From NCBI RefSeq assembly GCF_004010195.1, contig NC_057720.1:74833220-74897219 (forward strand): a DNA stretch of 64,000 nucleotides, written 5' to 3'. The stretch's first letter is position 1. Each line of letters opens with the position of its first letter. This DNA is from Chiloscyllium plagiosum. Its lineage: Eukaryota. Under the pieces are notes generated by a model, which saw nothing but the letters and a program-made list of their open reading frames with translations, had not been told where the DNA came from and made no database searches. Below are positions 1 to 60,881 of this stretch, in pieces. The translations under genes were made by a program, and so were the position numbers.

Positions 1-1015
1 TTACTACCCTTGAGGACCTCCTTTATAAATTTCTATCTAACTCTCTGTAATCTCCCTTCAGAGTCTCAACCTTTTCCCTTCCAATGTTGTTGGTTCCAAT
101 GTGGACAATGACCTCCTGCTGGCCCCTCTCCCCCGTGGGAACATTCTGCACCGTCTCTGAGACATCCTTGATCCTGGCACCAGGGAAACAACACACCATT
201 CTGCTTTTTCTCTGCTGGTCACAGAAACGTCTGTCTGTACCTCTGACTACAGAATCCCCTAACACAATTGAACTCTTGGAAACCGACATACCCATCATTG
301 CATTAGAGCCAGTCTCAACACCAGAAACTTAGCTGTTCGTGCTATGTTCCCCTGAGAATCCATCACCCCCTACATTTTCCAAAACAGCATACCTGATTGA
401 AATGGCTATATCCACAAAAGACTCCTGCATTAGCTGCCTACCTCTCTTATCCTTCCTGGAGTTAACCCATCTATGTGACTGTATCTGAGACTTTTCCCCC
501 TTCCTATATCTGCCATCCATCACATACTGTTGCTGTTGCAAATTCCTCATCGCTTCTATCTGTCTCTCCAACCGATCCACTTGATCTGATAAGATTCACA
601 TCCAACAGCATTTATGGCAGAGAAAATCCACAGTTACCCTTAAACTCTCTTTAAACTCCCACATCTGACAAGAAGTACATATCACTGCAAAGGCCGTTTT
701 TGCTCCTTCACAATCTACAGACCCAGAAAATAACACCGTCTTATTCCTCTACAAACACTGTCTCAAGTTAAATTAATACCTATGGCTTATATTTTAAGTT
801 TAATCAAGAGACTTATCTCCAAAAACATATAATCAAGAAAGAATCCACTATACTCACTACTGCAGCCTTTCTCTTGGACAGACTTAAAACAACAATTAAC
901 CTATCTGATTCTGTGCTGTGAACTTCGCCCAACAGTTCCTCCAAGATTAGTTGTGAATTTCACTGTTTGATAATTTTCCCAGATGCACTCCGATGTCCAG
1001 CGATACACGAATTCA
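1..1015 (-). mobile_element. CR1/HER1-type LINE 5' part: 5'UTR and disrupted ORF1 (Cys-rich, coiled coil, SGNH esterase); continues beyond the window start
   Basis: ORF 23..298 reads IVLGDSVVRG..MVCCFPGARIKDV..VIVHIGTNNIG, the GDS/GxN esterase motifs of CR1 ORF1p. ORF 329..580 DRLERQIEAMRNL is coiled-coil-like. Stops split the frame. Confidence 0.85.
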
Positions 1016-1082
1016 ACCAGTCAGCTTATAGATGGTGCACACTGCTGCTTCTGAGCTTCAGTGGTGACAGATGTGGATATCT

Positions 1083-1216
1083 AGGAGAAAGTGAGGACTG
1101 CAGATGCTGGAGATCAGAGCTGAAAAATGTGTTGCTGGAAAAGCGCAGCAGGTCAGGCAGCATCAAAGGAGTAGGAGAATCGACGTTTCGGGCATAAGCC
1201 CTTCTTCAGGAATCTT
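1083..1216 (-). mobile_element. 134-bp Penelope-derived non-autonomous element with hammerhead motif, flanked by a 15-bp TSD
   Basis: CAGATGTGGATATCT occurs at both 1068-1082 and 1217-1231. The body is homologous to copies at 3636-3763 and 8914-9195. Confidence 0.85.
1177..1214 (-). ncRNA. Minimal type I hammerhead ribozyme motif
   Basis: Minus strand GATTC-CTGAAGA-A-GGGC-TTAT-GCCC-GAAA-C-GTC-GATTC. Core intact, 4-bp stem II, stem I with one U.U mismatch. Confidence 0.75.
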
Positions 1217-1405
1217 CAGATGTGGATATCTGTGGATGTGGTGTCAATCAAGTAGGTTGCTTCTTTCCAGTTAGTGTCAAACCTCTCGAATGTTGTTGAA
1301 GCTGCACTCATCAAGGCAACTGGGGTGCATTCCATCACACACCAGACTTGTGCTTTGTAGATGGTAGACAGCTTGACGGAGTCAAAATGTGAATTACCCA
1401 CTACA
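1217..1405 (-). mobile_element. Fragment of a second CR1-like LINE family (host of the 134-bp insert; also 1017-1082)
   Basis: ORF 1216..1401 (LSTIYKAQVWCVMECTP..) matches the + strand copy at 57650-57800 (LSTIYKEQVRSVVEYSS). Confidence 0.7.
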
Positions 1406-1759: not shown

Positions 1760-2900
1760 TCTTAGCCTTTGACTTTGACTTAGTCACAGTACTAATACGA
1801 CATAGTCCAGTTCAGTCCCTGGTCAATAGTAATCCCTAGGATGTTGATAGTGAGGGATGGTGATACCATTAAAGTCAAGGGATGATGGTCAGAGTATCTC
1901 TTATTAGAGACAGTCATTGCCTGATAATTGCGTGTGGCATGACTATTACTTGCCACTTGTCAGCCCAAGCCTGGATATTGTCCTGATCTGAAGTTGCATT
2001 TGAACATGGACTGCTTCAGTGTCTGAGGATTTGTATATGGTATTGACTATTGTATAATCATTGGTGGATATTCCCCCCTTCTGACCTTATGATGGAGGGA
2101 GGGTCACTGATGAAGCAGCTGAAGATGGTTGGGCTGAGGTGACTGATTTCCAACAACCACAACTATCTTCCTATGTGGCAACCTTTCTGTTAGCTTCAGT
2201 TTTGCTGTAGCTCTGAAGCCACATTTGATTAGATGGTAGTGGCTACAATTTTGAAAAACACTGTCTAACGGCCTTGGTGATTTATTGCAGTGCACTTTGT
2301 AGACAGTACCTATTGCTACAACCATGTGCCAGTGGCAGAGACAGTAACTATTGAAGGTAGTGGATGTGACGCCACTAAAGTGGATTGCTTTGGCCTGGAT
2401 AATGCTGAAGCATGCTGAGTAATGTTGGAGCTGCATTTGTCCAGGCAAGAAGAGAATATTCCTTCATATTACTTGTGCCTTGCAGATGGTGGACAGGCTT
2501 TGGGGAGTCAGGAAGTGAGCTCGTCACCAGTGGATTTCTAGTCTCTTATGTGCTGTTGAAGCCATTGTATTTATACAGCTGGTCCTCTTCAATTTCTGGT
2601 CAATGGTAACCCCCAGGATGCTGGGGAATTCAGCTGTAGTAACTTTAAGGACAGATGGTTAGATTTTCTTTTGTTGAATGTGGTCATGCCTTGGCATTTA
2701 TGTAGTGTGAATGTTATTTACCACTTGTCCAATTCTTGCTGCATTTGAACATGGACTGCATCAGTATCTGAGGAGTTATGAAAACTGCTGAATGTTGTGC
2801 AATCATCAGTGAACATCCCCACTTCTGGCCTTATGATGGAGGGAAGGTCATTGACAAAGTAGCTAAAGATGATTGAGCCTAGGACACTACCCTGAAGAGA
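1760..2900 (-). mobile_element. Decayed CR1-like LINE ORF2 fragments (two overlapping pieces)
   Basis: The block gcatttgaacatggactgc..ccttatgatggaggga recurs at ~1995-2110 and ~2740-2850. Reverse complement matches 57200-57800. Confidence 0.7.
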
Positions 2901-3635
2901 TCATTTAAAGAGCTGAGAATTTAAATAACTAACATAGTGAATGTTTTATGGGTCTTATCAGCCCTCCAAAAGCATTCCCATCTATTTCAAGAATTTGTGT
3001 ATTCCAAACTGTAGATTAAGGTCTTTGCTAAATTGGGTCTGCTTGAAGTCAGTACTGTGTTCTGACAACCCAATAACAGTCACACCCCAGAAACTTATGC
3101 AAATAAAATCACAGTTGACTCACCATTTACCACATTAGTTACCTTTCTCATCTCTTGAAGCAAAACTGAGAAATTGTATTCAGAAACGCAATTACAGAAT
3201 AGTTTCCTGGGATGCGCAGGCTGGATGAATTACCCAAGGGAGATGCCGGGTGACAGGAATATGGTGAGGGGTGGGGGCTGGGTGAGCGTGGGATACTCTG
3301 CAGAGGGAAGGTGTGGACTCAATGGACCCAATGGCCTGCTTCTACACAGTTGGGATTCTATGAACCTATAAAATGGGTCCGCATACTCACCTAAAACTGA
3401 GATGAATGTATCAAATTTCCCATTGGCATATTAACTTCAAGGCAGTGATAAATAATTCACCACTTGATTGACGTTGGCTCTGTGCCTCTGGTGCAGGATT
3501 TTTAAGTACAGAGAAAACTTTTTGAAACTTGTGAGTTGAGCTAAATGTGAAGAAGGTTCAGGAGAAATGAATGGCTGTAGTTCCAATGACAAGATGAGGC
3601 AGAAACAAGCTGGATGATTAACAGTACCGGGAGAT

Positions 3636-3763
3636 AGTGAGGACTGCAGATGTTGGCGAGTCATCGTGGATAAAGAGTGGAGCTGGAAAAAAGCACGGCA
3701 GGTCAAGCAGCATTAGAAGAGCAGGAGAGTTGACGTTTCAGGTCAGAACCTTTCATCAGGACT
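3636..3763 (-). mobile_element. Penelope-derived short element with hammerhead motif (motif 3728-3763)
   Basis: Minus strand AGTC-CTGATGA-A-AGGT-TCTG-ACCT-GAAA-C-GTC-AACT. Body homologous to 1083-1216. Confidence 0.75.
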
Positions 3764-8913: not shown

Positions 8914-9195
8914 GTTGAAACTTTATTGCTGGAACAGCACAGCAGGTCAGGCAGCATCCAGGGAACAGGAGATTCGACGTTTCGGGCACAGGCCCTTCTT
9001 CAGGAATTGTAGAGAGAGGCAGAGAGCTTCTTCAAGGAAGGCATCCTTGTAAGAGGATTCGCAGTAGGTTGAAATCTTCGAGGAGAAAGTGAGGTCTGCA
9101 GATGCTGGAGATCAAAGTTGAAACTTTATTGCTGGAACAGCACAGCAGGTCAGGCAGCATCCAGGGAACAGGAGATTCGACGTTTCGGGCACAGG
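8914..9195 (-). mobile_element. Tandem Penelope-derived unit: two identical 79-bp direct repeats, 203-bp period
   Basis: 8914-8992 is identical to 9117-9195. One complete and one half hammerhead motif. Confidence 0.85.
8972..9007 (-). ncRNA. Minimal type I hammerhead ribozyme, fully paired
   Basis: Minus strand ATTC-CTGAAGA-A-GGGC-CTGT-GCCC-GAAA-C-GTC^GAAT. Stem I ATTC/GAAT, stem II GGGC/GCCC, palindromic ACGU helix III, GUC cleavage triplet. Confidence 0.85.
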
Positions 9196-9384: not shown

Positions 9385-9605
9385 AAAAATCGAAAGAAGT
9401 GCGGATGCTGGAAATCAGAAGCAAGAACAGGAATTGCTGAAAAAGCTCAGCAGGTATGTCAGCATCCGTGGAGAGAAACCAGAGTTAGCATTTTGGATCC
9501 AGTGAGATTCTGAGGAAGGGTCACCTGACCCAAAACATTAACTTTGATTTCTCTCCACAGATGCTGCCAGACCTGTTGAGCTTTTCCAGCAATTTCTATT
9601 TTTGA
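9385..9605. mobile_element. Palindromic (head-to-head) Penelope-derived element with decayed hammerhead (9508-9542, +)
   Basis: Arms aattgctgaaaaagctcagcagg..tggagagaaa and tttctctccacagatgctg..agcttttccagcaatt. Centre CTGAGGA-A-GGGTCA-CC-TGACCC-AAAAC. Confidence 0.75.
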
Positions 9606-18257: not shown

Positions 18258-18412
18258 CCAAAACAGAAATTGCTGGAGAAACTCTGCAGGTCTGGCATCA
18301 TCTGTGGAGAGAAAGCAGAGTCAATCTCTCGGGGTCCAATGACCAGCTGAGTTTCTCCAGCAACTTACGTTTTTAACTTCAGATTTCCGGCATCCGCAGT
18401 TCTTTGTTTTTT
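18258..18412. mobile_element. Internally deleted palindromic Penelope-derived element
   Basis: Inverted arms ttgctggagaaactc and gagtttctccagcaa; same family as 9385-9605. Confidence 0.65.
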
Positions 18413-46234: not shown

Positions 46235-47015
46235 CTATTCATTCTGAGAATGTGGGCTTCGCTGGTTTGGCCAGCATTTATTGCCTAGCCCCAGTTGCCT
46301 TTCAGAATGTGGTGGTGAGCTGCAGTCCATTTGGTGTAGGGAGATCTACAATGCTGTTAGGGAGGGAGCTCCAGGATTTTAACTCCGTAGCATTGAAGAA
46401 ACAGCAATATATTTCCCCATTAGACTGTAAATGTCTTGAAGAGGAACTTTCACATGGTAGTATTCCCATGTATTTCCTGCCCTTGTCCTTCTCAGTGGTA
46501 GCGTTTGTGGTTTGGCAGGTGCTGTCTAAATAGGCTTGGTGAATTTTTGCAGATAATAGATAGTATACACTGCTGCTACTGATCATCTGTCGTGGAGGGA
46601 GTGGATATTTGGGGATGACACGCCAGTTGAATGAATTGCTTTGTCCTGTTTGGTGTCAAGCTTCTGAATGTTGGAGCTACACCCATTCAGGCAAGTGGGG
46701 AGCATTCTACCACACTCCTGACTCATGCCTTGTCGATAGTTGATAGGCTTTGGAGAGTCAGAAGGTGAGTTATTTGCTGCAGTATTCCTAGCCTCTGACC
46801 TGCTCTTGCAGCAACAGTATTCATACAGCTAACCCAGTTGAATTTCTGCTCAATGGTAGCCGCCATGATGTTGATTATGTGGTTCAGTGATGAAAATGCC
46901 TAATTGAATGTCCAAGGATCATAGTTAGATTCTCTCTTGTTGGAGATGGTCATTGCCTTGCACCTGTGTGGCACAAATGTTACTTGTCACATGTTAGCCA
47001 AAGCTTGGATGTTGC
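46235..47015 (-). mobile_element. Second-family CR1-like LINE 3' fragment
   Basis: Reverse complement of the 57380-58170 region (KSWSSLPNSIVDLPTPNGLQ). Confidence 0.75.
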
Positions 47016-56934: not shown

Positions 56935-58170
56935 AACAGCCAATAATCTACTCAGTGCCGCCAGGGCTAGCCAGCTCCTGACTTCATTACAGCCTTGGTT
57001 CAAACATGGACAAAAGAGCTGGATTCCAGAGGTGAGAAGAAAGTGACAGCTTTTGACTTCAAGGCCACATCCGACCCCAAATGGCATCAAGAAGCATTAG
57101 CAAAACAGGAATCAATGGGAATCAGAGGCAAACTCTCCACTGGAGTTCTAATTGGCACAAAGGAAGATGGTTTTGGTTGTTGGAGATCCTCAGCACCAGG
57201 AAATCTCTGCAGGAGTTCCTCAGGATAGAGTCCTAGGCCTAACTTTCTTCAGCAGCTTAATCAATGATCTGTATTCCATCATAAGGTCAGAAGTGGGGAT
57301 GTTCGCTGATGACTGCACATGTTCACCATCATTTGCAACTCCTCAGAATACTAAAGCAGTCCCAGTTCAAATGTAACAAGATCTGGACAATATCCAGTCT
57401 TAGGCCAACAAGCGACAAGTAACATTCGTGCCACACGAATGCCAACCAATGACCATCTTCAATAAAAGACAATGTAAGCATCAATTCTTGACATTCAATG
57501 GTTTTACCATCAGCAAATCCCCCACTATCAATATGCGGGGAGTTTGCATTAAATAGAAGTTCAACTGGACCTGCCATATAAACACAGTGGTTACAAACGG
57601 GTTAGAGGCTAGGAATGCGGTGAGTAACTCACCTCTTAACTCCCCAAAGCCTGTCCACCATCTACAAGGAACAAGTCAGGAGTGTGGTAGAATACTCCTC
57701 GTTTGCTTGGATGGGTGCAGCTCTAACAATATTCAAGAAGCTTGACACCATCAAAGACAAAGCAGCCTGTTTGATTGGTACCACACCCACAAGCACTCAC
57801 TCCCTCCACCACCGATACTCAGTAGCAGCAATGTATGTCATTTTAAGATGCACTGTGGAAATTCATCCAGGTACCTCAGACAGCACCTTCCAAACCCATG
57901 ACCACTTCCATCTAGAAGGACAATGACAGCAGATACATGGGAACACCACCACCTGCAATTCCTTTCCAAATGAATCACCATCCTAGTTTAGAAATATATT
58001 ACTATTCCTTTACTGTCGCTGAGTTAAAATCTTGGAATTCCTTCCTTAAGGGCTTAGTGGACCAACCTACAGCACTTGGACTGCAGTAATTTAAGAAGTC
58101 AGCTCACCACCACATTCCGAAGGGCTACTAGGGATGGGCAAGAAATGCTGGCCAGCCAGTGGTGCACATA
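56935..58170 (+). mobile_element. Second-family CR1-like LINE, RT to 3' end, decayed
   Basis: SAGVPQDRVLG..FSSLINDL..VGMFADDCT (RT motifs); FKKLDTIKDKAACLIG. Confidence 0.85.
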
Positions 58171-60782: not shown

Positions 60783-60881
60783 ACAACAACAGAAATTGCT
60801 GGAAAAGCTCAGCAAGTCTGGCAGTATCTGTGGAGAGAAATCAAAGTTAACATTTCAGATTGAGTGACCCTTCCTCAGAAC
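60783..60881 (-). mobile_element. Penelope-derived short element with decayed hammerhead (60846-60881)
   Basis: Minus strand GTT-CTGAGGA-A-GGGT-CACTCA-ATCT-GAAA-T-GTT-AAC; same family as 9385-9605. Confidence 0.7.

Follow-up and report, generated by a model that had tools for sequence, protein, structure and literature searches.

Introduction

Among described elements, the insertion reported here resembles most closely the EN+ Penelope-like elements (PLEs) of the Neptune/Nematis type. These encode an RT followed by a GIY-YIG-like domain with a CX4CXXC linker (PMC8557442, from which we also take the definition of the EN+ PLE endonuclease), carry a hammerhead in the pLTR, a one-sided tail and a head-to-head partner, and insert with duplications of variable length and no poly(A) (PMC8557442, PMC3846280, PMC2377424). 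Each of these traits recurs in the family described below, in which the tail is 37 nt. The family differs in that copies of ~130 nt dominate, in that its duplications peak at 14-16 bp as against 8-10 bp in the rotifer EN+ PLE examples, and in a nucleotide-sharp 5' edge with an extra G, of which we found no description in the portions of the PLE literature used here.

In PAc (Poseidon of Anolis carolinensis), the PLE protein cuts and extends both strands, reverse transcription starts internally at two sites that bound the tail, and cleavage by the hammerhead, which lies upstream of those sites, is unnecessary, the RNA template being uncut (PMC11167929). The same layout would apply to the present family. 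The ORF of PAc starts in stem II, whereas that of the present family begins beyond the tail; the sections of PMC11167929 on which we draw deal neither with the 5' ends of genomic copies nor with a cap-derived base. The minimal hammerheads of metazoan PLEs, whose definition we use for comparison (PMC4209133), share with ours the core boxes, a bulged base before stem II, a G-C closing pair, a palindromic 15-16 without loop III, a short stem I and an occurrence mostly as single dispersed motifs; their stem II has 7-8 bp vs 4 bp here, and cleavage here is predicted.

Two further systems bear on the locus. Non-LTR retrozymes are likewise short, non-coding and PLE-related, with a type I hammerhead and duplications of >4 bp; they are described as tandemly repeated units that have canonical hammerheads and form circular RNAs, whereas the unit here is a monomer with a minimal hammerhead (PMC7229834; bioRxiv 10.64898/2026.07.22.740005). 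Full-length L1 copies carry an untemplated G at the 5' junction, which has been attributed to the mRNA cap (PMC11702581, PMC9341517). A G of this kind is found in the present family too. Retroviral minus-strand strong-stop DNA is a short cDNA that runs from an internal primer site to the RNA 5' end. Unlike L1 or a retroviral strong-stop product, the product here would be primed by nicked target DNA and integrate unchanged, with no tRNA primer and no poly(A).

The insertion and its target site

The window, that is, the whole stretch of DNA analysed, comprises 64,000 nucleotides of Chiloscyllium plagiosum contig NC_057720.1. Positions within the insert are given on the minus strand, from u1 (window 1216) to u134 (window 1083). 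The features of the locus are as follows.

1018..1405 (approx.), minus strand: host LINE fragment (RT C-terminal region), split by the insert
1068..1082, plus strand: target-site duplication, left copy, abutting the 3' end of the element
1083..1213, minus strand: 131-nt PLE end module (u4-134: hammerhead, pLTR segment, tail)
1083..1119, minus strand: 37-nt tail between two putative reverse-transcription start sites
1176..1213, minus strand: minimal type I hammerhead, from motif anatomy
1214..1216, minus strand: three junction letters, absent from the parent, which has CTC
1217..1231, plus strand: target-site duplication, right copy

In a window-wide search, CAGATGTGGATATCT stands at 1068-1082 and again at 1217-1231, exact in both cases, with no third site even when up to two mismatches were permitted (chance mean 0.16); two sites were reached in 0/100 shuffles. 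The repeat stops at 15 bp and extends neither way. The final 2 nt of the left copy (1068-1082) also agree with the continuation of the parent RNA: read on the element strand, the duplication begins with AG, which is also how that RNA goes on, and the 3' boundary of the insert is therefore ambiguous by 2 nt.

The host LINE fragment is ~80% identical to its paralogues, at loci that encode RVT_1. A left-flank BLAST match was obtained in 13 of 19 such loci, and 12 of these 13 place 1068 exactly in register with 1217; in the remaining six the flanks are collinear, judged by eye. Because the LINE paralogues carry the site once, the 15-mer was duplicated on insertion, and their single site serves as a proxy for the empty site. 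The initial annotation had described a perfect 15-bp duplication around 1083-1216 and an insert that interrupts an older LINE fragment, and both descriptions hold. Its 134-bp unit stands for the 131 nt (u4-134) that match the family; u1-3 are junction letters.

More fragments of the host LINE family lie at window 1804-2900, 46550-46608 and 57620-57791. Directly left of the LINE fragment, at window 700-1010, is another high-copy repeat, with very high contig depth.

Anatomy of the insert

Read on the minus strand, the hammerhead consists of the 5' strand of stem I (1213-1210, u4-7), the core (1209-1203, u8-14), a bulged A (1202), stem II (1201-1190, 4 bp), GAAAC (1189-1185) and GUC (1184-1182, u33-35). 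A palindromic ACGU stands where helix III would be. CUGANGA, the bulged base, stem II, GAAAC, GUC, the palindromic 15-16 and a short stem I, which together make up the minimal PLE hammerhead, are thus all present, and the cut is predicted to fall between 1182 and 1181. An Rfam scan of the window gave nothing at gathering score and the folding energy of the unit, compared with shuffles, is unremarkable (z -0.05), so that the hammerhead call rests on motif anatomy. When two copies were cofolded, the designed dimer was not the minimum (-24.1 vs -18.9 kcal/mol for a partial dimer), and this result therefore neither supports nor opposes dimer cleavage.

The insert carries no poly(A), and its minus-strand start lies within a few nucleotides of the hammerhead, the 5' strand of stem I being u4-7; the initial annotation was right on both counts. 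The ATG in loop II of this hammerhead opens 10 codons only. The junction letters 1214-1216, together with 1176-1177, add two stem I pairs that the parent lacks, probably by chance.

The parent is a Penelope-like element

We are highly confident that the insert is an end-piece of an abundant PLE and was inserted directly. A search of 3.56 Gb of genome sequence yielded, as its best 30 matches, copies that are 95-99% identical across u4-134, and seven of these 30 extend upstream into a common body. At two loci (L243 and L251) the module lies downstream, on the same strand, of an RT or an RT+endonuclease frame. The frame at L251 matches RVT_1 (E 8e-9); at L243, RT motifs are followed by a CX4CXXC linker and a GIY-YIG-like core, which is C-terminal to the RT and has two cysteines within it. 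The linker suggests Neptune or Nematis. A Pfam GIY-YIG match at a third locus, L128 (E 0.013), is below the cut-off, and a protein-neighbour search (Atlas) placed the parent ORF among animal RT proteins. A pLTR-ORF junction, an inverted partner and a tail of 30-40 nt, as expected of an EN+ PLE, are also found in the family. Both in its origin and in the way it works, the insert belongs with the EN+ PLEs. The family may already be named in Repbase/Dfam.

At 20 loci the parent runs on past u134 with AG and then the ORF start. It follows that u134 does not mark an end of the parent RNA but lies within it, and that priming of the copy took place in the interior of a longer RNA. The idea that the minimal unit was itself mobile is therefore not one that we retain, the unit being the end module of an autonomous PLE; on the other hand, the retrotransposition of the 134 bp as such through staggered nicks, also proposed at the outset, is supported by the single site in the LINE paralogues and by a duplication of family-typical length, and the sharp common ends and intact duplication indicate that the insert is no erosion remnant of a long element.

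Eight long-frame loci were examined for an intact full-length element, and all are broken by assembly gaps or other inserts. These loci bear on the reading of the insert as a solo pLTR, left when the two pLTRs of a full-length copy recombine and the original duplication is kept. Recombination or deletion has been invoked for the solo pLTRs on record (PMC3846280), and recombination would leave a duplication as well. However, no long copy with two direct pLTRs was seen at the loci examined, where assembly gaps limit the view; the short head-to-head pairs that dominate the family cannot arise by pLTR recombination; and a 5' pLTR that starts at u4 would still be required. We regard this origin as extremely improbable.

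Copies across the genome

The 38 nt at 1083-1120 have 16,844 exact matches in the genome, and short end-pieces of this kind number in the tens of thousands. When 664 kb were surveyed, 37 kb of them N, 110 BLAST pieces of the family were obtained, from which we extrapolate to several hundred thousand loci. For anatomy we used the first 90 of 100 listed exact-tail matches on one contig (C1). They comprise 59 head-to-head pairs, 24 solo copies and seven copies beside gaps. Duplications of at least 11 bp flank 52 of the 90, compared with 0/90 in a shuffled-locus null; by class, they occur in 47/59 inverted-pair, 5/24 solo and 0/7 gap-adjacent copies. Among the 47 duplications of inverted pairs, 36 measure 14-16 bp, within a family norm of 13-18 bp, and a duplication of 15 bp is the modal value of the family. 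The solo form with a clean duplication, to which our copy belongs, is a minority outcome. The insertion itself is an ordinary one for its family, and of a known class.

The inverted partner begins at u92-101 in 43 of the 59 head-to-head copies, which defines the tail of ~37 nt. The base that follows u134 is A or C in 76/90 copies, and in 20/90 the module is followed directly by AG (p 4e-7).

Very high copy number, common ends, a duplication and a hammerhead could also describe a stand-alone retrozyme or SINE-like family, whose 134-nt unit would be transcribed, would cleave itself and perhaps form a circle, and would be mobilised in its own right; animal retrozymes do derive from PLE pLTRs (bioRxiv 10.64898/2026.07.22.740005). 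Such a family should have ends set by the cut site and should form tandem arrays. Instead, of 3,048 copies read through the GUC cut site, the first 100 include one that ends there and three that end within 13 nt of it, and the 90-copy sample holds single units, with no tandem array of the unit and with the 59 head-to-head pairs. Furthermore, the parent sequence extends beyond the 3' end, the copies form a continuous series that reaches into the ORF, and the junction letters vary between copies. The retrozyme reading is, in our view, very improbable and already largely refuted. The count at the GUC site (1/100) likewise gives no support to a role of ribozyme cleavage in setting the ends of the copies.

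Many of the loci L131-L149 consist of the module, 80-230 nt of ORF start and then a second module or a piece of the 3' body; we read these as internally deleted mini-copies made by jumps. The window itself holds a tandem pair of family pieces at 8918-9191 (minus strand), joined via ~75 nt of the parent ORF start, the second of which begins at u4, as after a template jump.

The 5' edge at u4

The initial annotation had asked where the ends of the copies lie relative to the GUC site; they pile up at u4, just 5' of the hammerhead. Pattern matches that reach u4 number 29,284; the next base differs from that of the parent in 7,092 and agrees with it in 22,192. Of the latter, the first 100 were read by eye, and 28 depart from the parent within 12 nt. 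From these two counts (7,092 and 28/100), about a quarter of the pieces stop exactly at u4 and ~45% stop within 12 nt. Over half of the pieces that reach u4 continue upstream, and thus a second template (a 3' pLTR or a read-through RNA) is also used. At the edge the parent reads TCATTCC, of which u4 is the A. Judged against the initiator consensus, this is an initiator-like motif.

Hairpin joins of the CC/TC type being left out by the pattern, the next base on the element strand is G at 3,336 junctions and A or T at 2,038, so that G makes up 3,336/5,374 informative junctions (62% vs ~27% expected). When 100 rows with a non-parent base at u4 were read by hand, 58 had G; after hand cleaning, in which 43 rows were dropped (partner, slip, mutation, duplicate), G accounts for 33/57. 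A script count on fetched loci is noisy (G 14, T 15, A 5 and C 17 of 51) and gives 14/24 for G only once the C rows, and 10 T rows that belong to an older subfamily, are dropped by eye. A positional control at u10 consists mostly of partner-templated joins, and its ~19 unexplained rows, eight of them C, are too few to exclude a general bias.

Three other origins of the edge or its G were considered and rejected. A splice junction would require an AG before u4, which the parent lacks, and the upstream letters are not common to the copies; in D. virilis an intron does end at helix I of the hammerhead (PMC4209133). If the enzyme had slipped back onto the AUUC that is repeated behind the cut site, CG should come next, and CG is found in 8/100 rows. 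A point mutation of the parent C would leave the parent sequence beyond it, and just 1/58 G rows continues as the parent does.

The G that adjoins the module in our own copy is a candidate cap-templated base. In this copy the target end and the three junction letters repeat the 7-nt hammerhead core; a slip would account for these letters as well, so that this G need not be cap-derived.

In eight of 19 other loci where the parent continues, a second module that starts at ~u4 follows an ORF-start piece. These joins, together with that at window 8918-9191, are as expected if the enzyme were to jump templates at an RNA end.

The main alternative is that the insert is an ordinary 5'-truncated PLE copy, made with the 3' pLTR in a long transcript as template by an enzyme that stalled, on structure or a bound protein, just past the hammerhead, the G being due to terminal-transferase bias or repair. 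PLE copies are typically much truncated at the 5' end (PMC8557442), more than half of the pieces here run upstream past u4, the weak u10 control has some C rows as well, and the junction of this copy can be read as a slip. However, by the time of the stop the hammerhead has been copied down to its last base, and stem I is weak (three pairs and a U-U in the parent). It is also nucleotide-sharp, sits at an initiator-like motif and has the 62% G bias, and the eight of 19 loci with an ORF-start piece and then a module from ~u4 fit a jump at an RNA end. We consider truncation by stalling unlikely, and the likely reading is that the 5' edge marks the capped start of the element RNA rather than the ribozyme cut site.

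An older subfamily (L063, L065, L088, L095, L102, L110, L186, L201 and others) has a different sequence upstream of u4, and this sequence still reads as an initiator-like motif. The 3' UTR of the parent (the L017:1570-1700 region, and L002, L008 and L013) has a polypyrimidine tract and an AG ~20 nt upstream of u4, a possible splice acceptor.

Proposed mechanism

Bearing in mind that the Penelope transcription start sits inside the pLTR (PMC2377424), we think it probable that the insert is a PLE end module whose synthesis was primed internally on uncut RNA, at a point ~130 nt inside the RNA start, and continued off the capped 5' end. The small share of solo copies with a duplication of at least 11 bp (5/24) and the endonuclease match below the Pfam cut-off count against this account. 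The GIY-YIG endonuclease would nick both target strands 15 nt apart, and a nicked 3' end would pair with 2 nt of RNA and prime synthesis at the pLTR-ORF junction. The template would be the uncut 5' leader, with the hammerhead copied whole; u4 would be the Pol II start, where synthesis would run off the capped 5' end, the extra G being copied from the cap. The cDNA would then be joined to the other target end. Priming at both nicks would yield the commoner head-to-head form (59/90 copies), and our copy would represent the one-sided outcome. The anole PLE protein needs ORF-start sequence on its template (PMC11167929); because the insert is without this sequence, we predict that it is a dead end.

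More tentatively, and with rather less confidence than an even chance would warrant, we hypothesize that these observations describe a strong-stop-like cDNA of PLEs, in which run-off at the cap is followed by an obligatory jump. The enzyme would start in the 5' leader and copy the uncut hammerhead up to the cap, from which it would have to switch to a different RNA end. Were this the 3' end of the message, the pseudo-LTR would be rebuilt; a failed jump would leave the ~130-bp stubs and hairpins that fill the genome, their extra G recording the transcription start. To our knowledge, there is no established mechanism for the rebuilding of the pseudo-LTR. Among the papers listed in a literature search, none explains PLE 5' ends by a cap or by run-off, and none concerns PLE hammerheads in sharks.

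The PLE transposition cycle is known in part only. To judge from the junction record of the family, the ends are not set by the hammerhead, which is copied uncut; the record also points to a transcription start that can be tested and to a run-off step at the cap. If the run-off product were the normal first step, it would offer a route to pseudo-LTR regeneration.

Age of the insertion

We compared sequencing runs under three species labels (A, B and C), all of which hold the stretch. Contigs that cross from the insert into the right flank were obtained for each label: X1 (A; 3 of 507 bases differ from the window), X5 and X6 (B; 2/263 and 9/516) and X9 (C; 15/509), so that flank divergence from the window is ~0.6-3% across the three labels. 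With a junction threshold of 31 letters on each side, X6 alone qualifies, the other three having 23-25. The left junction is crossed by an X9 contig (1037-1098, with 16 insert letters within the compared stretch), and X7 (B) has read depth across it. Run X16 has no contig over 1070-1078, a hole that carries no weight. An empty site is represented by the single site in the LINE paralogues, but not in the runs from related species: no joint that skips the insert was present among the 15 of 254 joints examined, or at the left-junction check.

The junction contigs fit an orthologous locus with just these 134 bp, which would go against the solo-pLTR reading, but they do not span the whole insert. 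Because they occur under three labels, the insertion is probably older than the split of the three species, to judge from these contigs. The initial annotation had called it recent, a view that the shared junctions and the ~0.6-3% flank difference do not support; the insertion is probably much younger than the host LINE, yet not recent in the polymorphic sense. Junctions common to species would make such stubs usable as presence/absence markers among relatives. Related hammerhead modules that are older or partial, 76-91% identical, lie elsewhere in the window at 3630-3761, 9400-9592, 18270-18403 and 60796-60828.
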